Assembly (NCBI GenBank): GCA_964638875.1
Contig: CAZXBL010000005.1
Span: 1-34,794, forward strand
Source: an uncultured Candidatus Saccharibacteria bacterium
GTDB taxonomy: Bacteria; Patescibacteriota; Saccharimonadia; Saccharimonadales; JALRHH01
DNA: 34,794 nucleotides
Direction of reading: 5' to 3'
The notes below the pieces were generated by a model that made no database searches, was not told the DNA's origin, and saw only the letters and a list, made by a program, of their open reading frames with translations. Shown here piece by piece: positions 4,603 through 32,780 of this stretch (its first letter is position 1; the number at the start of each line of letters is the position of its first letter). The position numbers were made by a program, and so were the translations under genes.

Positions 4603-4731
4603 GTGGTATACTTAAGCAGTATCAGCATGCTGGATATTCGTGCTATCCGAGCTAAAACTCGGCCTAGCCGACAAAACCGGCATGTGGCTACGGCCTTCGG
4701 TCATAGCGCGCTGCGCGAATAATAAAACCTC

Positions 4732-7610: not shown

Positions 7611-7695
7611 TGCACACCCTTTCTGCAATTAATAGCAGGCGTGCTGGATTCCACTTTCTAGTACATAACCGGTATAATGATCTTTAAGAGGATTT

Positions 7696-16580: not shown

Positions 16581-16593
16581 TACCTATAGTGTA

Positions 16594-17685
16594 CTAGGAT
16601 TTCAGCGGCATAATAACGTGTAGATAGTCGTTACTGGCAGGGTCGGCCAAAACACACGGTTCCAGCTTGCCGTTAAAGGAAACTTGCACGTCTTCACCAC
16701 CAAGGGCATGTAACGCATCCAGAATATAACGTGAATTAAGCGTGATCACACCTTCGTTGGCGATCTGTGCTGCCGCACTAGCGGTGTTCTCACCAATTTG
16801 TGAGGCTATTGAACGAATACTAACCTGTTGTGCTTCGGCGTCGAGGTTCAGTGTCACACTGCCGGCACTTTCGCGGGCGAACAAACTCGATACCTTGGTA
16901 ATATTTGTGAGTTCAGACTTCTTGAGCGTCGCGTCGCTAGCAAAAGAGCGCGGGATGAGCTTACGGTAGTCTGGGTACTTACCTTCGATAAGTCGTGCCA
17001 CCAACTCTACGTCACCAACTGTAAACAGGACTTGTTGATCATCATGTGTCACAACGACGTCTTCTTCAAAGTCGCCAAGGATACGGAGCAAGTCAGCAAG
17101 CGCACTCGCTGGGATTAGCAGATCAACATCCTTATCAATACTAATGAGAGATTTTTCTGCTAGACGATAACTGTCAGTTGCGACGATATATAGTTTTCCT
17201 TCGTGTGTGTGCCAGTAGACACCGGTCAGAACCGGGCGGGCTTCGTCGCTTGATGCTGCAACTACTACTTGCTGGAGTGATTGTTTCAGTAGCTTTCCGG
17301 GGATCTTCCAGCTTGTGCCGTTTGTGATGGCAGGCATGACAGGGTAGTCTTCTGCGGAAATACCATTAATAGTTGAATTATATTTGTCGGCTTTAATGTG
17401 CAGCTTGTACTCGTCTAATTTCAATTCAATAACTCCACCCGGAAGACTACTCACAAAATCCTGCATAAGCCGCGCAGGGACGGTTATAGCGCCTTCTGCA
17501 CTTACTTTAGAACCAATGTAGTGGGTGATTGCAATATCAAGGTTGGTTGCTGCAATACTGAGCCTGCCATCTACTGTCTTTAAGAGCACGTTTGAAAGAA
17601 TTGGTAAGGTCCCTCTACTATTAGCAACACGTGCTACGCTGCTGAGTGCTTTGCTGAGATTTTCTTGTGTGACTTGGAGCTTCAT
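16594..17685 (-). CDS. dnaN: DNA polymerase III beta sliding clamp
   Basis: MKLQVTQENLSKALSSVARVANSRGTLPILSNVLLK is a typical clamp N-terminus. The length from ATG 17685 is 363 aa. The 74 codons upstream in the ORF track run through DnaA-box-containing intergenic DNA and are not clamp-like. Confidence 0.93.
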   Translation of the reverse strand: MKLQVTQENLSKALSSVARVANSRGTLPILSNVLLKTVDGRLSIAATNLDIAITHYIGSKVSAEGAITVPARLMQDFVSSLPGGVIELKLDEYKLHIKADKYNSTINGISAEDYPVMPAITNGTSWKIPGKLLKQSLQQVVVAASSDEARPVLTGVYWHTHEGKLYIVATDSYRLAEKSLISIDKDVDLLIPASALADLLRILGDFEEDVVVTHDDQQVLFTVGDVELVARLIEGKYPDYRKLIPRSFASDATLKKSELTNITKVSSLFARESAGSVTLNLDAEAQQVSIRSIASQIGENTASAAAQIANEGVITLNSRYILDALHALGGEDVQVSFNGKLEPCVLADPASNDYLHVIMPLKS

Positions 17686-17960
17686 TCTGTGTTCCTGTAT
17701 ACCTATATATTTAATTAGTAGTAGTGTTAGTAAGCACTGTGGATTGTGTGTACAAGCGGTTGATAACAGAGGTAAAATTACCCACAGGGGCTGTGTAGTT
17801 CCGCACACAAAATGTGTACAACCCACGTGAAAGTCGGGGAGTTTTCCATACGTATTTTGCAGATAAAACTTTGCTGTGCAGAACCCCGATACTTTGCCCA
17901 CAGGCATCAGTGGCTTTTCCTACGGCTTCTACACAGGTCTTCCACATGGTCACAAAATCA
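17686..17960. promoter_or_regulatory. dnaA-dnaN intergenic origin module: DnaA-box-like 9-mers plus an AT-rich stretch
   Basis: TTACCCACA lies at 17778-17786 and TTTTCCATA at 17842-17850. TTGCCCACA lies at 17894-17902 and TCTTCCACA at 17938-17946. TGTGGATTG (reverse CAATCCACA) lies at 17738-17746. An AT-rich run lies at 17701-17734 (acctatatatttaattagtagtagtgttagtaag). Confidence 0.55.
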
Positions 17961-19349
17961 CTAAGCATACAAACGCTCCTTAATTTCATTTACGGCTGCC
18001 TTAATATCGGCATCGTAACTGACTTCTTTTTCGATCTTCTCGACAGAATGTATCGCGGTGGTGTGGTCTTTACGCCCAAGCTCGCGGGCAATTTTAGGGA
18101 AGCTGAGGTGTAGCTCGCTGCGCAGCATGTACATTGCGACTTGACGGGGGACGACAATATCTTTGTCACGCTTTGGCCCCATGATCTCTTCCATAGGGAT
18201 TTGGAAATGTTTCGCACATCGTTCGATAATTTGTTTCGCACTAATATGTTTTGGCCGGGTCTTAGTAGCACCAAGTAGGGTGGTTGCTAGGTTGATGTCT
18301 GGGCTCAAGCCACGCATTTCACAAAATGCGAGCAGCTGGTTCAGCGCACCTTCAAGCTCACGAATGTTCGACTGCACCAAGTTAGCAAGGTATTCCACGA
18401 CCGGTGGGTCAAGACTGACGCCGTGTACTTGGGCCTTGGTTTGGATAATGACACAACGCGTTTCAAAATCAGGGATCTGCATATCAATACTCATGCCCCA
18501 AGTAAATCGACTGCGCAGACGTTCCTCTAGTGTCGGGATGTCCTTTGGTGGTTTGTCACTACTAATGATGATCTGCTTGTTTGCCTGGTGTAGTGCGTTA
18601 AATGTGTGGAAGAACTCCTCCTGCGTCTTTTCCTTGCCAGCGATGAACTGGATATCATCAATGATCAGCACATCGGCGTTGCGGTAATAACTAGCAAAGT
18701 CGGTGTTTTTCTTGAATTTAATTGCGTCCAAGAATTCCTGCACAAACTGTTCAATTGAAATATATACGATGTTTGCGTCAGGGTTGCCAGCAATAACAGC
18801 ATTGCCAACCGCCTGGATCAGGTGAGTTTTACCCAAACCAACACCACCGTACAGAAATAGCGGGTTATATTTAGTACCCGGGTTCGCTGCGATTGCCTGA
18901 CATGCTGCATAAGCCAACTCATTACCAGAACCGACAATAAAGTTATCGAATGTGTATTTCTCGTTCAGGCCCAATCTGTATGAGTGGGTGAGTGAGCTGG
19001 TCTGGCTACGGCTTTGCTGAGAGTTCGCTGCGTTGTTCGCGATCCGCTCAGTCGTTGCTGCATTAAGAATCAACGTTTCTTCATCAGCCTTTTTAGGGAT
19101 ATTAATAGAGGAGTAGATCTTATATTCAATGCGTTCTGGGATTACGCCGTTCTTGGTGATCAGATCAGTGATCATCTGATTGTATTTCTGTTCCAACTGC
19201 TGCTTTATAAAGACATTTGGTACACCGATTGTAATGACATTGTCCTTGTGGCGGAGCAGACGGGTGTTCTTGAACCAAGTCACATAGGAGCCGCGTGACA
19301 CTGTCAGTTCAATTTCGCCTAAGACCGTTTGCCACAGGTTATCCTGCAT
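17961..19349 (-). CDS. dnaA: Chromosomal replication initiator DnaA
   Basis: Walker A is LYGGVGLGKTHL. Walker B is VLIIDDIQF. The sensor region is SSDKPPKDI. The C-terminal DNA-binding signature is LGRKDHTTAIHS. Confidence 0.95.
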   Translation of the reverse strand: MQDNLWQTVLGEIELTVSRGSYVTWFKNTRLLRHKDNVITIGVPNVFIKQQLEQKYNQMITDLITKNGVIPERIEYKIYSSINIPKKADEETLILNAATTERIANNAANSQQSRSQTSSLTHSYRLGLNEKYTFDNFIVGSGNELAYAACQAIAANPGTKYNPLFLYGGVGLGKTHLIQAVGNAVIAGNPDANIVYISIEQFVQEFLDAIKFKKNTDFASYYRNADVLIIDDIQFIAGKEKTQEEFFHTFNALHQANKQIIISSDKPPKDIPTLEERLRSRFTWGMSIDMQIPDFETRCVIIQTKAQVHGVSLDPPVVEYLANLVQSNIRELEGALNQLLAFCEMRGLSPDINLATTLLGATKTRPKHISAKQIIERCAKHFQIPMEEIMGPKRDKDIVVPRQVAMYMLRSELHLSFPKIARELGRKDHTTAIHSVEKIEKEVSYDADIKAAVNEIKERLYA

Positions 19350-19681
19350 TACCCTCTCCCTTGGTGTAACGTTTTGTTCCTCTTAATATACAGAAAAGTA
19401 GTAGTTTTCCACAACCCTTTTGCCATCGTTTACTGATTTTATGCAAAATCATTGAAAAACTAGTTTTTTATACACAAAGGGAACGCTAATCTGTTAATCT
19501 GTGGAAAACACTTGAGCTACAGTGGAAAACTTGCTAGTATTAGTGGGTAAATATTGTTAATTTCACCATGAGTGTGAAAAGGCCGCTTGAACTTACGGAC
19601 AACATACAGTATCGTTGTCTGGTTTGGGTGAGTCACGCTGACTCGCCAGCCATAGCGTAAGCTGCTAAAATAAGGATTGAA
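19350..19681. promoter_or_regulatory. dnaA-rpmH intergenic origin module with a repeated TTTTCCACA-type DnaA box, plus the dnaA and rpmH promoters
   Basis: TTTTCCACA lies at 19405-19413. TTATACACA lies at 19468-19476. TGTGGAAAA lies at 19500-19508 (reverse TTTTCCACA). AGTGGAAAA lies at 19521-19529 (reverse TTTTCCACT). AT-rich tracts lie around 19441-19470. Confidence 0.6.
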
Positions 19682-19819
19682 ATGCCAAAGCGAACACACC
19701 AACCAAAGACTCGCCGCCGCGCCCGTGAGCACGGCTTTATGAAGCGTATGGCGACTAAAGCCGGACGTTCAGTATTGAACCGCCGCCGCAACAAAGGTCG
19801 CAAAGAGTTGTCTGCCTAA
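19682..19819 (+). CDS. rpmH: 50S ribosomal protein L34 (absent from the ORF track because it is under 60 aa)
   Basis: The translation is [45 protein letters not shown]. This is the canonical L34 sequence pattern, in the canonical position between dnaA and rnpA. Confidence 0.92.
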
Positions 19820-19837
19820 ATCAAGCAGGACAATAAA

Positions 19838-19868
19838 AGGAGCCTCAAGCAAGGGCTCTTTTTTAATT
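19838..19868 (+). terminator. Rho-independent terminator-like hairpin after rpmH
   Basis: AGGAGCC (19838-19844) pairs with GGCTCTT (19854-19860), including one G-U pair. The loop is 9 nt and the stem runs into a T6 tract (19859-19864). Confidence 0.45.
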
Positions 19869-19952
19869 CTCTGCGACCCCAGATGATACACTAGTTGTCA
19901 GTATGATTACTCCGAAATGTAACGATAAAATGCTGCCAGGAGGCGAAGCCGA

Positions 19953-20297
19953 GTGATTACTCGTAAAAACCGTTTTCATGGTTACAACAGTCTCCGCTAC
20001 GTCTACCAGCACGGCAATACGGTGCGCGGTCCGTTGACAGCGGTAAAGTTTATAAATAATGATCGTCGCAAGGATTATCGTCTGGCGATCGTAGTCAGCA
20101 AAAAAGTCAGCAAATCCGCCGTGGTCCGAAACCGTATCCGTCGCCGTCTATATGAGGCATTTCGATTGGAGTCCCCAAATATCAAGCAGCCATACGACAT
20201 TGTCGTCACGGTTTTTAACGAACAACTTGCCACTATTTCAGGTGAAGAAGTAAAAAAACTTGTCCATGCCCAGCTCCGGCAGGCAAAAATCATTTAG
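19953..20297 (+). CDS. rnpA: Ribonuclease P protein component
   Basis: It lies between rpmH and yidC and is basic and 114 aa long. It has the KNRF...R..R. and RNRIRRRL pattern. GTG 19953 is preceded by AGGAGG at 19939-19944. Confidence 0.85.
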   Translation: MITRKNRFHGYNSLRYVYQHGNTVRGPLTAVKFINNDRRKDYRLAIVVSKKVSKSAVVRNRIRRRLYEAFRLESPNIKQPYDIVVTVFNEQLATISGEEVKKLVHAQLRQAKII

Positions 20298-20344
20298 AAG
20301 CCGGTTTAAATCATCCACCACACCTGTTAGAATAGAGGATAACT

Positions 20345-21268
20345 ATGTTTGATAATCTCGTCGTACAACCGATCTTTAATCTGCTTGTCTTTATTACAGC
20401 CCTGATTCCGGGCCATAACTTTGGCATTGCCATCGTCGTCTTTACAATATTGATTCGCTTTGCGATGTGGCCACTCGTCAAAAAGCAATTGCACCACGCC
20501 AGCGCTATGCGCAAGATGCAGCCTCAGATAAAGCGCATCAAGAAAGAAGCCGCCGGTGACCGTAAGCAAGAATCGGCCATGCTCATGGAACTGTACAAGG
20601 AACGGAATATCAGCCCGTTTGGCTCACTTGGTACCATTATTATCCAGTTCATCGTATTACTTGGCCTGTATTTTGCGCTGCGCAAAATGGTGCACGACCC
20701 AGCCGCACTCGTGGACTTTGCATACGATCCTATTAGAGACCTGCCGTGGCTTCAGGATATCGCAGCCAAGACCGCCAGCTTTGACGAGTCGTTCATCGGT
20801 CTCATGGACCTAACCCGTGCCGCGATTAGTAGCCAAGGTTTCTACTGGCCAGCATTCCTACTAGTTCTTGGAAGTGCGTACGTACAGTTCAAACAGAGTT
20901 CACAGCTAATGCCAAAGCCCAAGGACGGGCGTGGCCTAAAGCAAATTCTTAAAGATGCTGCAGAGGGCAGAGAAGCTGATCAATCTGAGGTCAGCGCCGC
21001 GGTCATGCGTGGCACCCGCTTCCTGATTCCTGCCATGATCCTATTCTTTACCGTTGGACTTGCCGCCGCCTTGAGCCTCTACTGGTTTGTTAGCGGAATC
21101 GTCGCGATCATCCAACAGAGCCGTGTTCTGAAACAGGACGAAGAAGAAATGGAAGCAATCGCCGATGAGCCTGCCAGCAACAAGGTCATCGAAGGCGAAG
21201 TAGTTACGAGGGGCCAGGGTTCAAAAAACAAAAAGTCCAAATCATCTCAAAAAAAGAAGAGGAGATGA
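20345..21268 (+). CDS. yidC: Membrane protein insertase YidC/Oxa1 family (short Gram-positive-type form)
   Basis: It occupies the conserved position after rnpA. It has five hydrophobic segments, the W/P-K-Q region (FAMWPLVKKQLHHASAMRKMQPQIKRIKKE) and a basic C-terminal tail (KKSKSSQKKKRR). Confidence 0.88.
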   Translation: MFDNLVVQPIFNLLVFITALIPGHNFGIAIVVFTILIRFAMWPLVKKQLHHASAMRKMQPQIKRIKKEAAGDRKQESAMLMELYKERNISPFGSLGTIIIQFIVLLGLYFALRKMVHDPAALVDFAYDPIRDLPWLQDIAAKTASFDESFIGLMDLTRAAISSQGFYWPAFLLVLGSAYVQFKQSSQLMPKPKDGRGLKQILKDAAEGREADQSEVSAAVMRGTRFLIPAMILFFTVGLAAALSLYWFVSGIVAIIQQSRVLKQDEEEMEAIADEPASNKVIEGEVVTRGQGSKNKKSKSSQKKKRR

Positions 21269-21426
21269 CATGAGTGAGCTATTCCTTTCAGGCTCAGTAA
21301 TGAAAGCTAATTTGATAGAGCAAGAAGGCACGTTATGGTGCGGAGGCGTAACTGTGTTACGTCGACAAACCAAACGCGACTTATTGCCTGCCAAATTAGT
21401 TTGCAATTGGGACGGAAAGGAGTAGG

Positions 21427-21894
21427 TTGCTCAAAATGGAAGAATCACTACAATACGCCAAGAAATATCTTGAGGATCTTTTGTCCTTTTTCGGACTCAA
21501 CACCGATATCTACGCCACCAGCGAAGACAATGAGGTTATTGAACTACACGTGCCCTCAACCCACCTAAACGGCTTCCTGATTGGTCAGCACGGCGACACA
21601 ATGCGTTCGCTCCAGTATATGGTTAGTAATGCACTGAAAAACAACGGCTTTGAAGTCACCCGTGTGAATGTAGACGTTGCCGAATACAAGAAACAGCGCG
21701 CAGATCGCCTGGCAGAGAAAGCAGAGGAGTGGGTCAAAAAGGTCCAAGACACTAACGAACCAATGCACTTGCAGCCAATGAACGCTGCTGATCGCCGCAT
21801 CGCCCACAAAGTCGCCGCAGACGCTGGTCTGATTACAGAATCAGAAGGCGAAGGCCGCGACCGCCACGTCGTCTACAAACCCGCCGCAGAATAA
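21427..21894 (+). CDS. jag: Jag/KhpB-like RNA-binding protein (KH + R3H domains only, with no Jag_N domain)
   Basis: It occupies the conserved position after yidC. The KH-like block is FLIGQHGDTMRSLQYMV. The R3H block is MNAADRRIAHKVAADAGLITESEGEGRDRHVV. The start is TTG 21427 or ATG 21436. Confidence 0.8.
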   Translation: MLKMEESLQYAKKYLEDLLSFFGLNTDIYATSEDNEVIELHVPSTHLNGFLIGQHGDTMRSLQYMVSNALKNNGFEVTRVNVDVAEYKKQRADRLAEKAEEWVKKVQDTNEPMHLQPMNAADRRIAHKVAADAGLITESEGEGRDRHVVYKPAAE

Positions 21895-21929
21895 ATGCAC
21901 AGAATATAATTCTGGAACACTATACAAAG

Positions 21930-21956
21930 TTGACCGATCGGTCGTTTATGTATAAT
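21930..21956 (+). promoter_or_regulatory. Promoter-like element with an embedded perfect 12-bp palindrome GACCGATCGGTC (candidate operator)
   Basis: TTGACC lies at 21930-21935 and TATAAT at 21951-21956, with a 15-nt spacer. The palindrome lies at 21932-21943 and overlaps the -35 hexamer and spacer. ATG 21967 is only 10 nt past the -10 hexamer and has no SD. Confidence 0.45.
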
Positions 21957-21966
21957 ACTTAAGCAT

Positions 21967-22554
21967 ATGAAGGGTGGGACAGAAACCAGTGCTGTAATTG
22001 ACGGCATTATGAGATTTATTGTTGGTGGCGGAACGATCACCACAATTTTAGCGGCACCTGGTATGGCCGAGGTTCTCGATAAGCCAACACTAAATTACTT
22101 TAACAAGCTTGATAAACGTGCTCAGCGGCGAGAACTAAAGCGTCTTGTCTACTATATGAAGCAAAAAGGGTTAGTTTATCCTACGAGTGAAGAATACATG
22201 CATGGTATCGTCGTGACAAAGAAAGGTCTAGAACGGCTAAAGACAATAGACTTTGAAACATTGCAGATTCCTACACCAACAAAATGGGACAACAAATGGC
22301 GGCTCGTGCTGTTTGATATTCCAGAGCACCGTCGTGCTGGACGACGCGTACTAATATCAAAGTTAAAAGCAATCGGTTTCTTGCAACTTCAAAGAAGTGT
22401 GTGGGTACATCCTTTACCTTGCAGAGCAGAGATAGAGGTTATCACGCACCACTATAATATAGCGCGATACGTTTCCTATATCGACGCGACAGGTATCGAC
22501 AACCACGACGTACTAGTCAAAAAATTTAAGACTATTCTCACTCAGCCGAAGTAA
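21967..22554 (+). CDS. PaaX-like transcriptional regulator (winged helix + C-terminal Cas2/PaaX-type domain)
   Basis: The wHTH-like block is LKRLVYYMKQKGLVYPTSEEYMHGIVVTKKGLERL. The C-terminal block is KWDNKWRLVLFDIPEHRRAGRRVLISKLKAIGFLQLQRSVWVHP, characteristic of PaaX-like proteins. Confidence 0.55.
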   Translation: MKGGTETSAVIDGIMRFIVGGGTITTILAAPGMAEVLDKPTLNYFNKLDKRAQRRELKRLVYYMKQKGLVYPTSEEYMHGIVVTKKGLERLKTIDFETLQIPTPTKWDNKWRLVLFDIPEHRRAGRRVLISKLKAIGFLQLQRSVWVHPLPCRAEIEVITHHYNIARYVSYIDATGIDNHDVLVKKFKTILTQPK

Positions 22555-22575
22555 GTATCTGTATAATCCTAAAGT

Positions 22576-22611
22576 GTCTACTTAAATGTCCGATCGGTCA
22601 GTCCAGTAGAC
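22576..22611. promoter_or_regulatory. Second copy of the palindrome (GTCCGATCGGTC), nested inside a 7-bp inverted repeat
   Basis: GTCTACT (22576-22582) and AGTAGAC (22605-22611) flank GTCCGATCGGTC (22588-22599). That inner sequence matches the 21932-21943 palindrome at 11 of 12 positions. The element lies between the regulator stop and the next gene. Confidence 0.4.
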
Positions 22612-22697
22612 ATGTTTTGCACAGGATTTTTTCAGGTTCTGCTGTTCGACACGGGCTGAATTACTATATGATATAAATAATTATTTGGGGGTAGGTA

Positions 22698-23159
22698 ATG
22701 AGTACGCCGGTTAAATTTTTTGGAGTCATTCTTGGTGTGCCAGCGTTGATCATCGGGCTGTTACTTGTTAACGCATTCATATATCCTTTTAGCTCCAAGA
22801 ACCCTAATTTTTCCGACGTAGAGCAGGCATTCTCTAAACTCCAGTTTCCTTCAGACTGGCAAGAAATCAGCAGCAGCGAAAACCGAGGCATTGCCGGTCG
22901 CGGCTGCGACCCCTTCAACTCCTCCGGCTGCTTTAGTAAACGAAAAGTTTTTAGTGTTCCAATAAATGTGGGTTCGACACAGGTGTCGCAGGTTCTTAAG
23001 CAGTCTGGATGTGAGAGCATCTCCATCGAGGAGTATAAATATAATGACACAGACAAACCTTCTTATAACTTTAGGTGCACAATAGGTAGTAACGTTTTCT
23101 ATAGTGGTAACCTAAGTGGTACAGAGAATCGTGTCAGCATCAGCAGCAGCACCTACTAG
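22698..23159 (+). CDS. Small N-terminally anchored, Cys-containing extracytoplasmic protein of unknown function
   Basis: A GGGGGTAGG SD-like run lies upstream of the ATG. The TM helix is FFGVILGVPALIIGLLLVNAFIY. The ectodomain has four Cys residues. The 3' end overlaps the start of the cutinase-domain gene. Confidence 0.55.
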   Translation: MSTPVKFFGVILGVPALIIGLLLVNAFIYPFSSKNPNFSDVEQAFSKLQFPSDWQEISSSENRGIAGRGCDPFNSSGCFSKRKVFSVPINVGSTQVSQVLKQSGCESISIEEYKYNDTDKPSYNFRCTIGSNVFYSGNLSGTENRVSISSSTY

Positions 23160-25896
23160 GTTTGTAAGTCGCGCAGTCTTTTTTGTATTTGTATTTTCCC
23201 TCTTGGCACCAAGCAGAGCCCTGGCAGTCGAAAATGCTAATTGTAAAGATGTGGCAATAATCTTTGCAAGAGGCTCGGGGCAGAACCCGACAGGCGAGTT
23301 TATTAACGATCCTCTGGGTGATGATTTTAGGTTTGCTGAGAAAGAATCATACGCATTTTTCAAGAATCATACAGACCATCTCAGTAATGACTATCCGAAT
23401 ATTCCTTACAAGGCTGTTTCGATTCATGACTTTCCAGGCAAGTATGATCCGTTGGGTTACCAGGCAGTTGGGGTTGGGCTGGGAGAGATTGCAAATACAG
23501 CCAACGCGGATGCATCATGGGTGCCCGGTGATTATCAGGCCAGTGTGAAACACGGAGTCGCCGAAACGACAGGCTACCTAAGAGATCAGATCGCCACTTG
23601 TCCCAATCAGTACTTTATAGTGGGTGGTTACTCCCAAGGGGCACAGGTAATGGGCGAGAGCCTATTCCAATTAACCTCCGACGAAAGGTCAAAAATACTT
23701 GGGGTGGGCTTTTTTGGTGACCCAAAATATGTTGGCTCGACAGAAGGGGTGGGTGTAAAACCAGCCCTATCATTCCCGTGGCGTCGTGGAGAGGCAACTA
23801 ACAAAGATACAGGCATGCTCGAGCCACGCTTCCCGTATGTGCCAGTAGGGATAGAAATGCGTACGCTTAGCTGGTGCAACCGCCATGATATTGTTTGCGG
23901 AGGCTGGAGTGCATATAGAAAAAACAGCTCACACAGTGCTTATTCAGAAAGCTCGATCGGGTATGCCGTTAACGAACTGGTAACTATTGCAGCACCGCAA
24001 CTACTCGCGTTGGACAGAAAAACGGACGGCTCAGGCGTTCCACCAGTACAACTATCAAAAGCAGACAAGGATAGGGAACGCGACGTGATGTTTGTGATGA
24101 ACGATAATAGCAACAGCGATGTTCTAAATACTTTCAGGTATTCACTTGACCCCACGCTCGATCAATTCGTCAGGAATTTTACCGGGACTCGGTTTGCAGC
24201 GAAATCTTTTGGTGAGCATGACTATGGTTTTAGCGCCCCAAGGGTCGATAATATCCAATCATTCCTCCCTTATGCAGGTTTCAATCCTTCAAATCCTGTT
24301 TTTACTTCCAGTAATCTTACAAAATCTTTTGCAACAAAATACCCCTTTGGCCAGCCAATTATAGGGGGTGGAGATATAGAGGACCCCTACCAACTTGCCA
24401 TTGAACGCGCGGTTGTATCAACCGGCTGGCGCGATGACCTAAATGTTGAACGAAACATAGTTTTAATCACAGACAGACCACCAAAAGATCCGTATGAGTA
24501 CAACATCTGTAACGGTACTGTCAGGCAATGGATGCATTTTCCAGACACAAACGGGTATAAAAACTGCTACACCAATTACCACCGAGAAGTCTGGCAAAAA
24601 TCATTGTTACCAGAAACATGCGAAACAATCCTGAAAGTAATTATTGAAGACACGTGTACGAACCCGCTCATGTCGCCGCATTATGTGCAAATGAACAAGC
24701 GAACTCTAGAAGACGAAATCAAACTCGCTCAGGCATACCGCACCAAAATATCGATCGTCATCCCATATAAATTCGCCCAGGCGACACAGCTTGGAAACAA
24801 ACTTTCTGATGTTAGAGTTCGCGACAAACTACGCGGCATTGCAGAAGCCACTGGTGGCACGTTCGTCTATTACGACACCAAGACACAGTTCAATAGCACC
24901 TCGCTGTACGACACTTTGTGGCGTGTGTTCACCAAGCAGCCCCGTTCGCTGAGCACTGTGGCGGAAGGCGCCGTTGCACCGAAGGTTCTGGCGGTGCAGA
25001 CAAATACGCCAACGATATTTGACGTAAGTCGTTCCGGGGTTGTGGCATCGAACTATAAATGGGATTTTGACGATAACGGCACCTGGGATGAGGTAACCCA
25101 GGGACCAGTTACTCAGCACGAGTTCACATCACCGAACAAAGGCATACTTAGAGTGCAAGCAACTAGCGCCGGAGATGCTGTGCTGGGAGAAACAAGACAA
25201 ATATATACAGTGTCAGAGGGGGAGATGCCAACTATAGAAAAACCAAATTTGCCAGAAGGGATTACTGCGGCACAACAAGCGAACGGCACGGTTTTGCTCA
25301 AGTGGATACCCGAAGATACCAACCAAATCATCGTATTTGATTCCACAACGAACTTACCGGTCGGCTCAACGCCCCTAAAAAGTGGTTCGCTCACGCTCCC
25401 TTCGAGCTATGACAGTTTAGCCATCCGGGCGGTTAGTGACGCAGCAGCTAGTGACCCTGTCACGATTTCCGTTGTAACCTACACGGCTCCAATAGTAGAG
25501 GAAGAGCCATGCTGCGAACTACAAGAACCAAGCCCGGTACCAGAGGAACAACCTATTCTCCAAGGACTCGACGTGATCCCACCACAGGTTATTGAAGTAT
25601 CTGAAGAACCTCAGGCTGCACTTGTGGGGGTGAGTCCAGTTTTCCAACCTGCAACTATAACTACCACTAATTTCACGCAAAGAGCCTTTGCCGGAACTAT
25701 CCCAATTGCCGAAATCCCACAAGTGGCTGGTCTATCTGCTGACAAGCTACCGGCACAAACTTTCCAAACAGCGGGGCTTCCGCCCCAAAAGCCAACACCC
25801 AAATTAATTAATTGGTGGGTTCTCTGGGGAGTAGCAACCACAATCATATTCTTCATAGCTTACAGGGCGGCAAAGCGTAAGCAATTGCAGCAGTAA
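23116..25896 (+). CDS. Surface-anchored multi-domain protein: signal peptide, cutinase-type serine esterase, vWA domain, PKD domain, FN3-like domain, P/Q-rich stalk, C-terminal TM anchor
   Basis: Cutinase blocks are CKDVAIIFARGSGQNPTGE, the GGYSQGAQV nucleophile elbow, WCNRHDIVCGG and SHSAY. vWA blocks are VMNDNSNS (DxSxS), IVLITDRPP and IAEATGGTFVYY. The PKD block is YKWDFDDNGTWDE. The C-terminal anchor is WWVLWGVATTIIFFIAYRAAKRKQ. The start is GTG 23116 or GTG 23131. Confidence 0.8.
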   Translation: MVQRIVSASAAAPTRFVSRAVFFVFVFSLLAPSRALAVENANCKDVAIIFARGSGQNPTGEFINDPLGDDFRFAEKESYAFFKNHTDHLSNDYPNIPYKAVSIHDFPGKYDPLGYQAVGVGLGEIANTANADASWVPGDYQASVKHGVAETTGYLRDQIATCPNQYFIVGGYSQGAQVMGESLFQLTSDERSKILGVGFFGDPKYVGSTEGVGVKPALSFPWRRGEATNKDTGMLEPRFPYVPVGIEMRTLSWCNRHDIVCGGWSAYRKNSSHSAYSESSIGYAVNELVTIAAPQLLALDRKTDGSGVPPVQLSKADKDRERDVMFVMNDNSNSDVLNTFRYSLDPTLDQFVRNFTGTRFAAKSFGEHDYGFSAPRVDNIQSFLPYAGFNPSNPVFTSSNLTKSFATKYPFGQPIIGGGDIEDPYQLAIERAVVSTGWRDDLNVERNIVLITDRPPKDPYEYNICNGTVRQWMHFPDTNGYKNCYTNYHREVWQKSLLPETCETILKVIIEDTCTNPLMSPHYVQMNKRTLEDEIKLAQAYRTKISIVIPYKFAQATQLGNKLSDVRVRDKLRGIAEATGGTFVYYDTKTQFNSTSLYDTLWRVFTKQPRSLSTVAEGAVAPKVLAVQTNTPTIFDVSRSGVVASNYKWDFDDNGTWDEVTQGPVTQHEFTSPNKGILRVQATSAGDAVLGETRQIYTVSEGEMPTIEKPNLPEGITAAQQANGTVLLKWIPEDTNQIIVFDSTTNLPVGSTPLKSGSLTLPSSYDSLAIRAVSDAAASDPVTISVVTYTAPIVEEEPCCELQEPSPVPEEQPILQGLDVIPPQVIEVSEEPQAALVGVSPVFQPATITTTNFTQRAFAGTIPIAEIPQVAGLSADKLPAQTFQTAGLPPQKPTPKLINWWVLWGVATTIIFFIAYRAAKRKQLQQ

Positions 25897-25937
25897 CAAG
25901 AGTGATATATCCTTAGGTTACCTAATGAGGGCGTCAA

Positions 25938-26579
25938 ATGAAGAAGATTAACCAGGGTGGTTTCTTATCTTTTTTTGAAATAATGGTAATCCTTGTCGTT
26001 GCCACGTTGTGTTATGCGGGTTTCAAAGTGTACCAAAATGACAAGGCAGAGAAAGCTACATCAAGCAGCGAAACAACTAACTACGAAGGACAAACAAAAA
26101 CCTATACCGACACCGCCAAAAAGTTTACCTTTGAATACCCAATCACCTGGGAGGCATCCAATCCTGAACCAGGCGGGAGTGACTCTCTTGGTGACAAGCC
26201 AATAGCTATCACCGACTGGTCGGTCGTATCCCGAGACGTGCGCATAAAACCCTTGGAAGGCCAAAAGGACAACTACATCCGGATTACGCCGAATATAACA
26301 AAAGACTATGTAGCCGAGCAAAGAGCCCGCAAGGACCGGTTCCATACCCTCCTAGACGGCAAGATCAACAATTATGACACGCTTTACGACAAACTAGAGT
26401 TTAAGGGAGATGCCGAAAGTTACGTCGACCACACATACTACGTTCTACACGGTGAAACATACGTGATGTTCACATTCCGGGAAAACCACCACCATGACAT
26501 GAGCGGCACAAACTACGACGACAAACAAAACCTCCCAGGTTTCCAAGCCATAGTTAACTCAATAAAATTCACCAACTAA
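25938..26579 (+). CDS. Type IV pilin-like protein, paralogue 1 (atypical spacing of the conserved Glu)
   Basis: The sequence is MKKINQGG/FLSFFEIMVILVVATLCYAGFKVYQ. It has a short basic leader, Gly-Phe, Glu at +6 and a hydrophobic helix. The C-terminal globular part carries the FTFEYPITW motif. Confidence 0.65.
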   Translation: MKKINQGGFLSFFEIMVILVVATLCYAGFKVYQNDKAEKATSSSETTNYEGQTKTYTDTAKKFTFEYPITWEASNPEPGGSDSLGDKPIAITDWSVVSRDVRIKPLEGQKDNYIRITPNITKDYVAEQRARKDRFHTLLDGKINNYDTLYDKLEFKGDAESYVDHTYYVLHGETYVMFTFRENHHHDMSGTNYDDKQNLPGFQAIVNSIKFTN

Positions 26580-26654
26580 TACAGTCACCCAACAGCTGTA
26601 TTGTGTAGACCCTTTCGCTGGTATATGCTTAAGCTAACTAATAAAGGACACCAC

Positions 26655-27329
26655 ATGAAAAAGTTAAATCAAAAAGGTTTCACTGGGTTTGAAATAGCAC
26701 TATTAGTACTCGTCCTGGCGGCAATCGGATTCGCTGGCTATACGGTATATCAGAATCAAAAATCCAACGAAGCCCAAACTAGCACCGACAAAATTGCAGG
26801 TGTAGAGAAAAAAGATACCGAGGAAAAAGAGTCACCAAGGTGTGACGAGGGACTTAAAGAATTTAGTGATGAAAAAGTCGGAGTTAGATTCTGCTACCCA
26901 GAAAAATGGGGGCTAGAAATTGGACCTAATGTTGATTTCCTGACGAATAGGGTCTCGTTGACCAGCCCAGATTACCACGAAGACCCTGAAGCAAGTTTTG
27001 GGGGCAGTAAAACTGGGAGTGTGGTCTCTGTAATTATTTCTGACACTACCAATCCTGCGCATGATCGAGTAACGGTACAGAGTATTTTAGACGGTACCGA
27101 AAAAGGGAAGTTATATTACTCTGATGTTAGCCACGCTAAGGTAGCTGGTTATGACGGCGCCAAGTATATTGCAGGCTATGAGGGCCCACGGAGTTCGACA
27201 TATGCATTCGAGCATAACAAGAAAAAATACTCCCTAGGTATTAGTGAAGACATAGATGGACCTAATTTTAACGATAACCAAGCCGACTTCGAGAAGATAG
27301 TAAAGTCATTCCAACTGCTAAGCAACTAA
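26655..27329 (+). CDS. Type IV pilin-like protein, paralogue 2
   Basis: The sequence is MKKLNQKG/FTGFEIALLVLVLAAIGFAGYTVYQ, a class III signal with Glu at +5. AAAGGA lies upstream of ATG 26655. The upstream extension to 26601 in the ORF track is not pilin-like. The shared motif is RFCYPEKW. Confidence 0.7.
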   Translation: MKKLNQKGFTGFEIALLVLVLAAIGFAGYTVYQNQKSNEAQTSTDKIAGVEKKDTEEKESPRCDEGLKEFSDEKVGVRFCYPEKWGLEIGPNVDFLTNRVSLTSPDYHEDPEASFGGSKTGSVVSVIISDTTNPAHDRVTVQSILDGTEKGKLYYSDVSHAKVAGYDGAKYIAGYEGPRSSTYAFEHNKKKYSLGISEDIDGPNFNDNQADFEKIVKSFQLLSN

Positions 27330-27338
27330 GGAGCTCAC

Positions 27339-28022
27339 ATGAAAAAACTTAATCAAAAAGGTTTCTCGCCATTTGAAGTAGCACTTCTCATCCTAGTTCT
27401 AGCAGCACTAGGCTTTGCAGGTTTTACGGTGTACCAAAAGAACAGGCCGGAAGATCAGTCGCAAACTTCTATTGAAAAGCAATCAACCAGAACGCCTATA
27501 GAAAAACAGTCAGCAGAACAACAAATCGATGAGTACGCTGGCTGGAAGGAAGAGATAAATAACAAGTACAAGTTTAGCTACAAGTACCCTGCGAGCTCCG
27601 GTAAACTCACCTGGACAACCTTCGTGAGCGAGAACCCAGAAAGCAGCCAGGGTTATAAACTAGGTGATTATGTTAATGCCGCAGGGGTTGGGTTGGCTAT
27701 TTCTGATGTAAGGGGCACAGGTTTTCAACCTTTTACCTTTAGCATCGACAAAGTAGGTACTGTAGAGGACTTGGGTGGTTCCTGGGAGCAGAAAGTAGAT
27801 CCTAATTACTACACCCAAAAGTCGAAGACGACTGTGACAAAAAACAATATAAGCGGAACCCGGTGGGAATATAAATCGCTCAAAGAAGGGAACTCAGACT
27901 TTATACGCTACCGCTACATCAAAGGCGACCTTAGCTACTTTATGCTTATTGAGGGAGTGGCGGACGGAATTAACTTACTTGAACACGGGGAAAAGATCCA
28001 TAAATCCTTCACCTTTTTATAA
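27339..28022 (+). CDS. Type IV pilin-like protein, paralogue 3
   Basis: The sequence is MKKLNQKG/FSPFEVALLILVLAALGFAGFTVYQ. AAGGAG lies at 27328-27333. The shared motif is YKFSYKYP. Confidence 0.7.
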   Translation: MKKLNQKGFSPFEVALLILVLAALGFAGFTVYQKNRPEDQSQTSIEKQSTRTPIEKQSAEQQIDEYAGWKEEINNKYKFSYKYPASSGKLTWTTFVSENPESSQGYKLGDYVNAAGVGLAISDVRGTGFQPFTFSIDKVGTVEDLGGSWEQKVDPNYYTQKSKTTVTKNNISGTRWEYKSLKEGNSDFIRYRYIKGDLSYFMLIEGVADGINLLEHGEKIHKSFTFL

Positions 28023-28052
28023 CCTAACAACGCCCATATCATAGGAATTCAT

Positions 28053-28754
28053 ATGAAAAAACTCAACCAAAACGGCTTCTCGCCATTCGAAACTATATTA
28101 TTGGTTCTTGTTATAGTAGCTTTAGGATTCGCTGGTTATGTAGTTTATCAAAGAAGTAAAGACAGCCAGAACAACCAGCAAACTACAGTAGTGAAGAAAG
28201 AAACACCTACTGAAGAAAGTAAAGTGGAAGTCGACGAAGAAGCTCAAAAGTGGGAGTTAGTAACAAGCAGACAGAACGCCTTTAGCATTCGCATTCCTGA
28301 TGGGTGGAAAGTTGTGAATTATGGTCAATCTGACAATCTTCGTGCCAGTAGTGTGTCTTACAAAGCGGGCACTAAGGCACAGGTGGAAAACATAGAGTAT
28401 GCTTACGCCGGAGACAGTCCAGTAAGGTTCTCGGTGACACAGCTTAAAGATAACGAAAGATATTCGTCGGACGGCGCGTCCGGGACGCCCTTTAAACTTG
28501 GAGATATAACTGGAACCAAGTATTACAAGAAATACCCTGTTGAACCAGTAGAAGGGATTGGTCCACTGCCAGGCGAAGAAGCCTATACTTATGAGTTCAA
28601 GACATCCGGAAAGATTACCTTGGTCTCGTATGCCGTATACCATAAAAACCAATATTCAGAAGATTTCTTAAAAACAAACTACAACCAAGCAACCAGCGAT
28701 ATCAATCAGATTGAATTAGTTGAACGAGTAGTTAAAACATTGCAGATCAAATAA
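28053..28754 (+). CDS. Type IV pilin-like protein, paralogue 4
   Basis: The sequence is MKKLNQNG/FSPFETILLVLVIVALGFAGYVVYQ. The shared motif is FSIRIPDGW. Confidence 0.7.
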   Translation: MKKLNQNGFSPFETILLVLVIVALGFAGYVVYQRSKDSQNNQQTTVVKKETPTEESKVEVDEEAQKWELVTSRQNAFSIRIPDGWKVVNYGQSDNLRASSVSYKAGTKAQVENIEYAYAGDSPVRFSVTQLKDNERYSSDGASGTPFKLGDITGTKYYKKYPVEPVEGIGPLPGEEAYTYEFKTSGKITLVSYAVYHKNQYSEDFLKTNYNQATSDINQIELVERVVKTLQIK

Positions 28755-29174: not shown

Positions 29175-30272
29175 CTACTGTATTGTGCTGTTATAAACCT
29201 GTAGGGTTTCTTCTGCCATCTTACGCCAAGAATATTGTTTTAGAACGTCCTGGCCTCTCTCAACGAGAGTGTCGGCGAGTTTCTTGTCCTCTATGACTGA
29301 CGTAGTCTTTTCTGCTATATCTTCAATAATAGTAGGGTCAAAGTACGCCGCCGCATCCTTGTATACCTCTGGTAAACAGGTCGCGCTGCTGCTGACTAGG
29401 GGGCAGTTGTACACCATTGCCTCAAGGCCGGGTAAACCAAAGCCTTCTGACAGGGAGGGAAGTACGTAGCATTCGGCGTTCTGATACAGCCACTTTAGCT
29501 GTGCGTCACTGATAAACCCCGGTACAATAATTGAATCTTTGGCGGGGCTGGCTGCGATCCAGCGATTGAGATCTTCCCGGAATATGCCACTGATCTTCCC
29601 TGGCAACACTAACTGTAGTTCATGTTGTGAAGTTTTGAGTATTTCAAAAGCTTTGATTAGCCGTTCGATATTTTTATGCGGCAATGGCTGGCCGACATGG
29701 AATATGAATGGTTTGCTAACACCGCTTAACGGCTCAGCTGGTCCGTCAGCCGCTGGTTCGGCCGATTCGTATGTTCTGACGATTTTGTCTTTAGTAAATG
29801 GCTGGTATTTGGCTAGGTCTGCGGCAACATAATCTGTCGGTACAATAATTTTCTTAGATTTACGATGTGACCACCACAGTAAGAACCGGTATAAACTCAT
29901 GCCAATTATGTGAAGCCAAGGTGGAAAACGGCTTGGGCGGGTGTGGTGCAGCATGGTGAGATCATGCGTAGTCGTGACGATGTTGCCAAAATACAGCACT
30001 GGCTGCTGGGTCATAGTGAAGTGGACGAGGTTCGGCTTTAGTCGATACAGCCGCCATGCAAATGAGATCTGCTCGAGTGGGTTAAATGAAAACTGCTTAA
30101 ATCTACAACTCTGGGTAGAGAAATTTTGGTTGGTTGGCTGCCAGTTATCATCGGGTTTTACTAGGATGGTGTAAGTGTTATCTGTGTCTATTGTCTGGAG
30201 GTGTTCTATCAATCTGTCGGTATAACGACCTGTACTTGCCCGTCTGTTTCTGGCATCAATGACAATATGCAT
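29175..30272 (-). CDS. Glycosyltransferase, GT-B fold, family 4 (GT1-type)
   Basis: The EX7E region is LPSLSEGFGLPGLEAMVYNCPLVSS. The length of 365 aa is typical of the family. Confidence 0.85.
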   Translation of the reverse strand: MHIVIDARNRRASTGRYTDRLIEHLQTIDTDNTYTILVKPDDNWQPTNQNFSTQSCRFKQFSFNPLEQISFAWRLYRLKPNLVHFTMTQQPVLYFGNIVTTTHDLTMLHHTRPSRFPPWLHIIGMSLYRFLLWWSHRKSKKIIVPTDYVAADLAKYQPFTKDKIVRTYESAEPAADGPAEPLSGVSKPFIFHVGQPLPHKNIERLIKAFEILKTSQHELQLVLPGKISGIFREDLNRWIAASPAKDSIIVPGFISDAQLKWLYQNAECYVLPSLSEGFGLPGLEAMVYNCPLVSSSATCLPEVYKDAAAYFDPTIIEDIAEKTTSVIEDKKLADTLVERGQDVLKQYSWRKMAEETLQVYNSTIQ

Positions 30273-30336
30273 AGATATAGTTTACAGCAGCAGCAATCTT
30301 AATAAGAGGATACAATTAAATGAGTTTTTGACTGAA

Positions 30337-31209
30337 CTATTTCTGAACAACCATATCTACGAACGGATAACCAAGGTTGTTTGTAACCAACTGATAGTTC
30401 CCAGACTTATCGTAAGCTTTAGCAAACCAGCGGTAAGTTCCTGCTGGGTAGCTTGCTAGTAGCCAGTCATATTGGTATAACGTACCAGCATAAGCCTTGG
30501 TCTGGGTAAATTTTAGACTAGTTGCTGAGGTGTTATTTAAGTACCACTCTACCTTTGATGCGGCGTCTATCTGGCTTATGTTTAATCCTACATAGGCTGT
30601 ACCTTGAGTTGGCACCCAAGTAGTCATGTGGTTTTGGGTAAATCGACCAGACACTTTCCCTTGGACATTATTGTTAACAATCATATCGACATAAGGGACG
30701 CGCGGTGCACTTTGGGCTAAACGGTAGTTCCCCTTTGTGTCGTATACTTTTACAATCCATCTGTAGGGTCCTGAGACAAGCGATTTTATAGGCCAATCAT
30801 ACTGATATAAATTTCCTACTCGTGGGGAGGTTTGAGTATGTGCAAGTGATCCCGTCTTTGTGTTATTTAAGTACCACTCTACTTTTTTAACGCTCTTCAC
30901 TTTAGTAGGATCAACGTTGATACCTACATAGGCTACGGTCTGGCCATTTGGCCAACTAGCAGGATTAGACTGGGAGAATGTTGCAGTGACAGTCCCAGGA
31001 GTTCTTTGCGTCTCAGCTTCCAGGAGCATGTTTACGTCGGAATCGACTGCCTTAGGGGCTTGGACACTGCTATTCTCCACCTGGACTTGATTTTGTGGTG
31101 TAGCAGCAAAAACTCGAAAGGCGGTGTATCCTATCGCTGCTGTCACGAGAGAAAAAATTAGTAATGAGCCTAGGTGCATTATGCCATGTTCGTTTGTAAT
31201 ACTTTTCAT
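30337..31209 (-). CDS. Secreted or anchored protein with two tandem Ig-like (Big_7-type) repeats
   Basis: The N-terminal hydrophobic segment is LGSLLIFSLVTAAIGYTAF. Two units of about 110 aa each contain VEWYLNNT..., LYQYDW, G(P/T)YRW, K(V/A)YD.(K/S)GNY and VDM(I/V)V. Confidence 0.7.
   Translation of the reverse strand: MKSITNEHGIMHLGSLLIFSLVTAAIGYTAFRVFAATPQNQVQVENSSVQAPKAVDSDVNMLLEAETQRTPGTVTATFSQSNPASWPNGQTVAYVGINVDPTKVKSVKKVEWYLNNTKTGSLAHTQTSPRVGNLYQYDWPIKSLVSGPYRWIVKVYDTKGNYRLAQSAPRVPYVDMIVNNNVQGKVSGRFTQNHMTTWVPTQGTAYVGLNISQIDAASKVEWYLNNTSATSLKFTQTKAYAGTLYQYDWLLASYPAGTYRWFAKAYDKSGNYQLVTNNLGYPFVDMVVQK
30530..30882. repeat. Intragenic direct duplication (exact 23-nt core GTGTTATTTAAGTACCACTCTAC at 30530-30552 and 30860-30882, 330 nt apart)
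   Basis: The exact 23-mer is seen twice, offset by 110 codons. It corresponds to the VEWYLNNT motif of the two Ig-like repeats. Confidence 0.9.
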
Positions 31210-31307
31210 TATGTTTATCCTTTTAAATATATAGTCTTATATTAATCCAAACTTGATAAATATACACCATTGGATATCTTCATAACACAAGAGACTTCCA
31301 GGTGGAA

Positions 31308-31335
31308 ATGACAAAGCATGGCGTTTCAGTATAAA
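31308..31335 (+). promoter_or_regulatory. Sigma70-like promoter (ATGACA-16-TATAAA) upstream of the O-antigen-ligase-like gene
   Basis: ATGACA lies at 31308-31313 and TATAAA at 31330-31335. TTG 31340 would lie at or before the expected transcription start, which favours ATG 31349 on a short SD-less leader. Confidence 0.4.
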
Positions 31336-31348
31336 ATACTTGCAAACA

Positions 31349-32701: not shown

Positions 32702-32780
32702 TTTAGTAGCTAGCAGTACAGGCTGCTAACAGATCTGGTATAGTAGAGAGACAAGAATTTAAAGGGGAATGTATTCAATA

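Follow-up and report, generated by a model that had tools for sequence, protein, structure and literature searches.

The locus and its gene pair

The stretch of DNA analyzed here, called the window throughout, comprises 34,794 nt of contig CAZXBL010000005.1 from an uncultured Candidatus Saccharibacteria bacterium. Its element of interest is a pair of overlapping genes that encode a small membrane-anchored protein of 153 amino acids (aa) and a surface protein of 926 aa with a cutinase-type esterase domain. An initial annotation made by a model from the letters and a list of open reading frames (ORFs), without database searches (the sequence-only reading), had placed both genes correctly: in the ORF list, the 153-aa ORF extends from 22698 to 23159 and the 926-aa ORF from 23116 to 25896, both on the plus strand. 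The 926-aa ORF starts with the GTG at 23116, and an alternative in-frame GTG is present at 23131; the overlap of the two genes thus amounts to 44 nt or 29 nt, respectively, close to the 30–45 nt that had been estimated. The orthologous genes likewise overlap the partner gene, by 4–32 nt.

The window is a Saccharibacteria-type chromosome segment, and the closest homologues are labelled Candidatus Saccharibacteria or Saccharimonadia. It begins with genes resembling those of type IV secretion systems (T4SS) and with very large wall hydrolases, which are followed by recF, dnaN, and dnaA (minus strand), then by rpmH, rnpA, yidC, jag/khpB, a PaaX_M-like gene, and the esterase/partner pair. After the pair come four pilin-like genes and then glycosyltransferase and Wzy genes. 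The features of the gene pair are as follows (AF2, AlphaFold2; pLDDT, predicted local distance difference test; CE5, carbohydrate esterase family 5; the basis of each assignment is given in brackets):

22698..23159, plus strand: partner gene, 153 aa (ORF list, hydropathy, Cys positions)
23116..25896, plus strand: gene for the 926-aa surface protein (ORF list)
23116..23226, plus strand: predicted signal peptide, aa 1–37, with a hydrophobic core at about aa 18–32 and a cleavage-type site between ALA and VE (hydropathy)
23233..24015, plus strand: cutinase/CE5-type alpha/beta-hydrolase domain, aa 40–300 (Pfam PF01083)
24067..24951, plus strand: predicted divergent vWA domain, integrin-beta I-like, aa 318–612 (BLASTP, hhalign, profile, Foldseek)
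24487..24705, plus strand: insertion of about 70 aa inside the vWA domain, aa 458–530 (four invariant Cys at 465, 484, 502, and 514)
24973..25221, plus strand: PKD-type beta-sandwich with WDFDDNGTWD (aa 649–658), aa 620–702 (weak Pfam match, alignment, AF2)
25243..25485, plus strand: second beta-sandwich, aa 710–790, FN3- or Ig-like by predicted fold alone (AF2)
25486..25809, plus strand: disordered P/Q/E-rich stalk, aa 791–898 (pLDDT <50 for aa 793–899)
25810..25896, plus strand: C-terminal transmembrane helix, about aa 899–918, and basic tail RAAKRKQLQQ, then stop (hydropathy)

The esterase domain belongs to a distinct cutinase subfamily

The Pfam family Cutinase (PF01083) matched the 926-aa protein with an E value of 2.4e-21 and 76.9 bits, compared with a cut-off of 25.9, a score that is far above chance. 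The same family was matched in all 34 aligned orthologues; about 35 full-length orthologues with the whole architecture were available, and the columns of residue conservation reported below were counted over 34 of them. All the motifs quoted in the sequence-only reading are present, in the esterase domain ARGSGQ at aa 51–56, GYSQG at aa 171–175, HDIVC at aa 257–261, and SHSAY at aa 272–276. The triad Ser173/Asp258/His273 is invariant (34/34), and in profile alignments to the solved cutinases 8jct and 4psc of the PDB, the GYSQG, DLVC, and His elements fall on the cutinase triad, so that the cutinase signature claimed for the protein was borne out. The oxyanion residues Ser54 and Gln174 are also invariant, and R52 and G53 are found in 33–34 of the 34 orthologues. 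Cys162, Cys254, and Cys261 are present in every orthologue and Cys43 in 33; by homology, these residues would form the two cutinase disulfides 43/162 and 254/261. A pseudoenzyme reading was rejected because the catalytic residues are invariant in 34/34 orthologues. Judged by these residues, the domain is a genuine member of the cutinase family and apparently active.

With respect to known enzymes, the profile of the family matched fungal cutinases and CE5 esterases among the PDB sequences with E values of about 1e-15, compared with 2.6e-4 (3aja) and 1.7e-3 (5w95) for proteins of the Rv3802c type and 0.035 for the LysB of phage D29 (3hc7). The AF2 model of the 926-aa protein has a mean pLDDT of 80, with 85–96 in the folded parts, and comparison with Foldseek gave target-normalised TM-scores of 0.75 for the esterase part to both the acetylxylan esterase 1bs9 and the cutinase-like protein 2czq. 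In BFVD, a Gordonia phage LysB was matched with a target-normalised TM-score of 0.45 (E 2.5e-5). The domain is not specifically LysB- or Culp-like, and the link to these proteins that the sequence-only reading had drawn is weak. Mycobacterial Culp/Rv3802c proteins and mycobacteriophage LysB have in common with it a cutinase-like alpha/beta-hydrolase fold that acts on lipid esters of the actinobacterial envelope and are therefore a conceptual precedent for an envelope-directed enzyme of this fold; however, their sequence match is marginal and their fold match weaker.

The fungal cutinases and CE5 esterases (Fusarium solani 1CEX, Trichoderma reesei 4PSC, Penicillium AXE II 1BS9, and Cryptococcus CLE 2CZQ) share PF01083, the GYSQG elbow, the Ser-Asp-His triad, the oxyanion Ser of the RGS motif, and both disulfides with the domain studied here. 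They differ in size, about 200 aa compared with about 260 aa, and they lack the conserved insertions at aa 58–100 and aa 205–250. Furthermore, the present enzyme is bacterial and membrane-anchored, it is accompanied by a partner gene, and its chain continues into vWA, PKD, and additional beta-sandwich domains. The second of the two insertions includes the segment PWRRG...G.L..R.PY.P (aa 221–243, nt 23776–23844), which lies between strand 5 and the catalytic Asp. The pattern PWRRG..G.L..R.PY.P is kept in all the Saccharibacteria and actinobacterial homologues examined, including two that consist of the cutinase part only (L055 and L069). At the sequence level, this insertion marks a distinct cutinase subfamily, and its retention in both phyla suggests that the members of the subfamily have a common substrate.

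An integrin-beta I-like domain that Pfam misses

For the region downstream of the esterase, a vWA domain had been proposed from the sequence. Pfam did not recover it: the VWA-family models did not match the 926-aa protein even at an E value of 0.1, and among the orthologues VWA and Integrin_beta were matched once each (1/34, E 0.0089, and 1/34, E 0.0072). Profile and fold comparisons, on the other hand, upheld the proposal. By BLASTP, aa 18–459 aligned without a break to the homologue P0037, of which aa 313–440 constitute a Pfam VWA domain, and hhalign of the family region covering the first half of the domain with canonical cutinase-vWA relatives gave a probability of 97% (E 7e-11). The profile of the vWA region matched the integrins beta-6, -8, -3, and -1 at about E 1e-7. 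When the whole model was compared with the PDB by Foldseek, the top 38 matches were integrin beta headpieces, with E values down to 2.7e-10, a probability of 1.0, and about 428 aligned columns; the AF2 pLDDT over aa 320–610 is about 85–95. On these profile and model comparisons, the vWA domain is predicted to be of the integrin-beta I-like kind, with clear homology although Pfam misses it.

The similarity to the integrin beta I-like domain together with the hybrid domain extends to the motifs D..PE/DP, WR, and (T/S)D, and in both cases the second half of the domain contains an insertion. In the window's clade, this part differs from the canonical cutinase-vWA relatives by an extra hairpin and by the 70-aa insertion with four Cys (465, 484, 502, and 514), which are invariant in 34/34 orthologues and modelled with a pLDDT above 90. 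Unlike in integrins, there is no alpha-subunit beta-propeller partner, the domain is joined to an enzyme, and a single C-terminal transmembrane helix is present without a cytoplasmic signalling tail. Integrin-like proteins outside animals include the Sib proteins of Dictyostelium (Pfam vWA_SIBA-E) and CglD of Myxococcus (bioRxiv 10.1101/2023.10.19.562135).

A further claim, that of an intact metal ion-dependent adhesion site (MIDAS), was not robust. The motifs quoted for the vWA domain are present (DNSNS at aa 330–334, LITD at 450–453, and ATGG at 578–581). However, the residues of DNSNS are poorly conserved, with D330 in 20/34, S332 in 17/34, and S334 in only 4/34 orthologues, and in the alignments the motif is one residue out of register relative to the DxTGS of the canonical relatives. 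D420 (in GGGD), D423, and D453 (in LITD) are found in 34/34, 29/34, and 27/34 orthologues, respectively. Thus, an intact MIDAS is unproven, and the first MIDAS loop (NDNSNS, aa 329–334) appears degenerate in the window's clade, unlike in integrins. The same feature bears on the comparison with Gram-positive pilus-tip adhesins such as EbpA of Enterococcus (PMC3419518), which also expose a vWA domain on the surface of a monoderm cell, where its usual role is adhesion. These tip adhesins need an intact MIDAS and are polymerised by sortase, whereas the 926-aa protein is not a pilin, does not conserve the MIDAS loop, and carries an enzyme.

Surface exposure and the remaining domains

The topology that had been read from the sequence, with a signal peptide, a disordered stalk, a C-terminal transmembrane helix, and no LPXTG motif, was recovered, and the domain order was upheld as well. 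The cleavage site of the signal peptide is read from the sequence; the model has a low-pLDDT N-terminal helix at aa 15–29, and the N-termini of the orthologues are similar. At the other end, AF2 predicts a helix at aa 900–925, and the same C-terminal ending is present in 34/34 orthologues. No sortase motif of the LPXTG/LAXTG type was found within the final 60 aa, either in the 926-aa protein or in the 34 orthologues; LAxTG/LPxTG signals do occur in some actinobacterial homologues (L046, L061, and L066, and, according to its source name, P0044). The signal peptide and the C-terminal helix imply Sec export and a membrane anchor, and, because the cutinase is separated from the anchor by the vWA domain, two beta-sandwiches, and the roughly 100-aa stalk, the esterase would be situated at the membrane-distal end.

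The two beta-sandwiches are less clear-cut. The proposed PKD motif is present, W649 and D650 of its WDFD core are invariant, and AF2 predicts beta strands; however, the Pfam match to PKD_4 is below threshold in this protein (E 0.029, 14.9 bits compared with a cut-off of 27). PKD was matched in 11/34 and PKD_4 in 7/34 orthologues (E up to 0.01), and the region aligns to a part of P0037 that includes a significant PKD_4 match at aa 525–607. For the segment that had been described as FN3-like, a beta-sandwich is indeed predicted (strands at aa 717–787 with a pLDDT of 85–92, W730 invariant), and Foldseek matches in BFVD included tandem FN3/Ig phage tail proteins, but the Pfam model fn3 did not match any of the 34 orthologues, so that the likeness is one of predicted fold. 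Altogether, Cutinase was the only Pfam family above threshold on the large protein, and NCBIfam had no match for either protein of the pair.

The stalk contains two short motifs. CCELQ (aa 799–803, nt 25510–25524) corresponds to C-x-K-L-Q-Q-C in many orthologues. PQVxG (aa 868–872, nt 25717–25731) is located about 28 aa before the transmembrane helix, with V870 present in 32/34 orthologues; a function in processing or docking is conceivable. A sortase-like reading of PQVxG was rejected because, at that distance from the helix, it is too remote for a sorting signal.

The upstream gene encodes a conserved partner

The 153-aa protein has an N-terminal transmembrane anchor (aa 3–28, nt 22704–22781) and an extracytoplasmic alpha+beta domain (aa 29–153) with four conserved Cys residues (C70, C78, C105, and C127), and this ectodomain is on the same side of the membrane as that of the large protein. 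Its family comprises 24 detectable proteins, none of which has a Pfam domain or an informative name. Pfam searches with the partner and four distant partners returned nothing credible. The AF2 model of the partner has a pLDDT of 82, and Foldseek yielded no significant match to it in the PDB (best E value 0.024, TM-scores of 0.34 or lower). Weak resemblances to hot-dog, DUF4853, and PsbP folds were not trusted.

On seven contigs that bear homologues, the partner gene is located directly upstream of the esterase gene, mostly overlapping it. The upstream ORFs of distant Saccharibacteria and of Actinobacteria encode proteins of about 145–180 aa with an N-terminal transmembrane helix and the pattern ADxFxPxxxW...C..CP; by hhalign, the partner family of the window is related to these distant ORFs with probabilities of 95.6–97.6%, and the partner sets of distant Saccharibacteria and of Actinobacteria are related to one another with 99.2%. 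In an iterated search of 88 loci with hidden Markov models, the partner gene immediately preceded the esterase gene, in the same orientation, at 48/58 loci of Saccharibacteria and other members of the candidate phyla radiation (CPR) and at 11/27 actinobacterial loci. The small upstream gene is thus a genuine conserved partner, as had been supposed, with related genes at 59 loci altogether, and the two overlapping genes are a conserved module. Compared locus by locus with the vWA match, both were present at 54 loci, neither at 12, vWA alone at 17, and the partner alone at 5; at least some of the last 5 are short or truncated contigs. The partner tracks specifically the vWA-bearing forms of the esterase.

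The arrangement resembles the LipA-Lif operons of Pseudomonas and Burkholderia, in which two genes likewise encode a secreted esterase and a small, N-terminally anchored partner. In the module, however, the partner gene is located upstream rather than downstream, and its product of about 150 aa has an alpha+beta fold with two probable disulfides. No foldase was among the Foldseek matches of the partner, which also had no match in Pfam or NCBIfam that would relate it to Lif foldases.

Distribution and synteny of the module

In a set of 185,579 species genomes, Saccharibacteria/CPR and Actinomycetota accounted for the 80 best loci. Represented among the Actinomycetota are Cryptosporangium, Solirubrobacterales, Microbacterium, Cellulomonas, Arthrobacter, Actinomycetaceae, Bifidobacteriaceae, and Rothia, and no mycolate-producing genus was found among these 80 loci. 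Arthrobacter, Cellulomonas, Microbacterium, Bifidobacteriaceae, Actinomycetaceae, and Cryptosporangium are not known to produce mycolic acids. The complete two-gene module is also present in free-living, non-mycolate Actinobacteria (for example, Arthrobacter, Cellulomonas, and Microbacterium), and the family is represented in gut- and mouth-associated lineages. Uncharacterised actinobacterial proteins that are annotated as ‘cutinase family protein’ and have VWA and PKD domains (for example, P0042 from Solirubrobacterales, P0044, L036, L046, and L052) are direct homologues: the order of their domains and the esterase insertion agree, and at 11/27 loci the same partner is encoded upstream. They differ in that their vWA domain is canonical (DxTGSM, recognized by Pfam) and lacks the four-Cys insertion, and in that some of them are sortase-anchored.

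In a rough neighbour-joining tree of the esterase domain, computed without support values, sequences from Saccharibacteria (L026-L053) and Actinomycetota (L022-L085) were interleaved, which fits horizontal exchange between the two groups but is not proof of it. One metagenome-assembled genome (SRP286056_co1_207) has two copies of the module, each with a partner (L019 and L020). The interleaving and this two-copy genome suggest repeated exchange between the epibionts and the phylum of their hosts.

The genomic position of the module is characteristic of the window's clade. In 14 of the 15 distinct loci with upstream sequence, the pair adjoins rnpA-yidC-jag and dnaA, sometimes with a PaaX_M-like gene between the pair and rnpA-yidC-jag, whereas the downstream genes are variable. 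At the actinobacterial loci scanned, dnaA, rnpA, yidC, and jag were not found in the 4-kb flanks.

Possible roles of the module

Cultivated Saccharibacteria grow attached to Actinobacteria. Taking this together with the results above, we tentatively favor, at rather less than even confidence, a two-protein surface esterase complex that acts on an ester of an actinobacterial-type envelope and, in Saccharibacteria, probably on the surface of the host. The large and the small protein would assemble at the cell surface, with the partner as the subunit that serves to dock, position, or gate the enzyme, and with the vWA-PKD part supplying the binding. The enzyme would cleave the ester bond of an acyl or acetyl group on some component of a monoderm envelope of the actinobacterial type; in Saccharibacteria, it would most likely work in trans, on the surface of the host where the epibiont is attached. 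Horizontal transfer would have carried the module between Saccharibacteria and Actinobacteria. The recycling of other bacteria's lipids has been reported for CPR bacteria (PMC8080830, citing Probst 2020), so that lipid harvest is conceivable as well.

Several observations weigh against such a complex acting on a host. The lack of conservation of the canonical MIDAS loop weakens the classic model of a metal-dependent adhesin. The presence of the module in free-living Actinobacteria implies that acting on another cell is no inherent part of its function, and the host adhesion and host-lipid harvest put forward in the sequence-only reading cannot be the ancestral role, given that the same module occurs in free-living Actinobacteria without mycolates. 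A fixed, origin-proximal position in the core of the chromosome is seen more typically for housekeeping genes than for host-specific adhesins. Moreover, the partner was undetected at 10 Saccharibacteria/CPR loci and at 16 loci of Actinobacteria. Finally, the terms ‘Cutinase’ and ‘PF01083’ are not in the supplementary tables of the transposon sequencing study of Southlakia (PMC10633639), tables that may be truncated, so at least one cultured epibiont may lack the module.

The main rival is a housekeeping role in cis, in which the enzyme trims acyl or acetyl esters on the cell's own wall or membrane polymers during growth, in the same manner in Actinobacteria and Saccharibacteria and with no direct part in host contact. 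We consider this explanation doubtful but serious. The same two-gene module in free-living Actinobacteria, the conserved position beside yidC-jag/khpB and dnaA in the window's clade, the strict conservation of the catalytic core and of the subfamily insertion, and the degenerate MIDAS loop all speak for it. There is also an analogy with Rv3802c, a cutinase-fold enzyme with an essential envelope role in mycobacteria, although its sequence match to the present family is only weak. However, an esterase that is distal to a long stalk and to three binding-type domains has a layout suited to outward reach, and the orthologues diverge fast (30–60% identity), as is often the case for exposed proteins. 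In addition, some Saccharibacteria either lack the gene or have it in a form that went unrecognised.

The complex acting on the host surface, in turn, has a more elaborate version that we regard as improbable. Here, Actinobacteria and their Saccharibacteria epibionts would have exchanged an integrin-like device of two subunits for docking and cutting. Its integrin-beta-like head and the partner would recognise a specific polymer of the actinobacterial surface, from which the distal esterase would strip acyl or acetyl groups, thereby opening or conditioning the host envelope where the epibiont attaches. If this were true, epibiont attachment or feeding would depend in general on the module as a conserved factor, and a host's own copy of it could affect susceptibility.

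Acquisition of nutrients is a rather unlikely explanation. An anchored acetyl(xylan) esterase or cutinase of the CE5 type would act on environmental or dietary polymers, with the PKD, FN3-like, and vWA domains binding the substrate. The best matches by sequence and by fold are indeed fungal cutinases and CE5 acetylxylan esterases, and PKD domains are common in secreted polymer-degrading enzymes. A GH10 gene is located near the orthologue in L002, and a protein with a GH43 domain is encoded in the window. However, conservation does not extend to the flanking genes. The GH10 gene of L002 is on the opposite strand and is missing at the other loci, and the GH43 domain is one component of a wall hydrolase in which it is joined to lysozyme and M23 domains. 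For such polymer-degrading enzymes, it would be unusual to have a membrane partner of their own and to be encoded near the origin in the chromosomal core, and the occurrence of the family in gut- and mouth-associated lineages also speaks against this role.

That the enzyme is a LysB/Culp-type esterase that cleaves mycolyl-arabinogalactan or trehalose mycolates, or that harvests host lipids, is very unlikely. The common fold family, the weak matches to 3aja, 5w95, and 3hc7, the Gordonia phage LysB in BFVD, and the lipid scavenging described for CPR bacteria point in this direction, but cutinases and CE5 esterases are much closer by both E value and TM-score, the carrier genera are generally known to lack mycolic acids, and no mycolate producer is among the 80 loci. 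A catalytically dead adhesin that retains the cutinase fold only as a binding scaffold is nearly excluded: the several adhesion-type domains are compatible with it in an unspecific manner, whereas the elbow, the Asp, the His, and the oxyanion residues are invariant in 34/34 orthologues, as are both disulfides apart from the single missing Cys43, and they are conserved in Actinobacteria as well.

We found no literature on this protein, the cutinase-vWA architecture, or the partner, including in the Southlakia study and its supplements. All the domains are of known families, and databases already call the relatives ‘cutinase family protein’. What is new is the assignment of the hidden vWA domain to the integrin-beta-like kind, the partner family with its conservation over two phyla, the subfamily-specific esterase insertion, and the fixed origin-proximal position in one clade of Saccharibacteria. 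Current databases thus capture neither the partner family, which is unannotated, nor the cutinase subfamily with its conserved insertion and its fusion to an integrin-beta-like domain that Pfam misses. To our knowledge, few molecules of the interface between Saccharibacteria and their hosts are known besides type IV pili and a T4SS-like system. The module is a concrete candidate for a function at this interface or in the envelope because it is surface-exposed, has an esterase that is intact by sequence, is widespread in Saccharibacteria, and is shared almost only with the phylum of the hosts. Even if its role is ordinary envelope upkeep, it adds a conserved, uncharacterised module to the monoderm envelope.

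Neighbouring genes and other features of the window

Two features were annotated in the region immediately upstream of the pair:

21967..22554, plus strand: PaaX_M-like gene (winged-helix and Cas2-like), directly upstream of the pair (Pfam PaaX_M, E 4e-22)
22575..22612, no strand assigned: palindrome of 19+19 nt without a spacer, 79% complementary (in the 143-nt gap before the partner gene)

A PaaX_M-like gene also adjoins the module in L001, L004 (on the opposite strand), L014, L016, and L064, and from this recurrence it may be a dedicated regulator of the module. The palindrome could be an operator or a terminator. A scan of 21800–26700 for promoters and terminators found such sites to be no more numerous than in shuffled sequence and is therefore uninformative with respect to an operon. 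No tRNA genes were found within the window.

The region 3640–13739 contains the T4SS-like set, with a PrgI-family protein (3640–4602) and a VirB4/TraG-type ATPase (5703–7610), followed by the two very large wall-hydrolase fusions. The first of these (7696–11547) combines an endonuclease/exonuclease/phosphatase domain with peptidase M23, and the second (11535–13739) has a phage-tail lysozyme domain together with GH43 and M23. The T4SS of Patescibacteria described in bioRxiv 10.1101/2025.01.22.634366 is similar to this set.

The block from 15522 to 21894 is of the replication-origin type, with recF, dnaN, and dnaA (minus), then rpmH (19682–19819), rnpA, yidC, and jag/khpB. Three DnaA-box-like sites with one mismatch each cluster at 19405–19508, in the gap between dnaA and rpmH; the count of DnaA boxes across the window was not significant. 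The dnaN ORF is listed with 437 aa, and its true start is probably located downstream because the Pfam match starts only at aa 75.

Directly downstream of the esterase gene, the region 25938–28754 harbors four consecutive genes for small proteins with N-termini similar to those of type IV pilins (MKKLNQKGF[TS]xFE followed by a hydrophobic helix), two of which have weak PsbP_2-like domains. These four genes are missing from the orthologous loci L001, L002, L004, and L008 and thus appear to have been inserted between the esterase and the glycosyltransferase genes; a link between the module and the pilins was rejected for the same reason. Further downstream, the region 29175–33827 encodes a GT4 glycosyltransferase, a 290-aa Big_7-like protein, a Wzy_C ligase-like protein, and an epimerase of the GDP-mannose-dehydratase type. 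The same gene order is present in L002 (11469–16325), which points to a conserved surface-polysaccharide cluster nearby.

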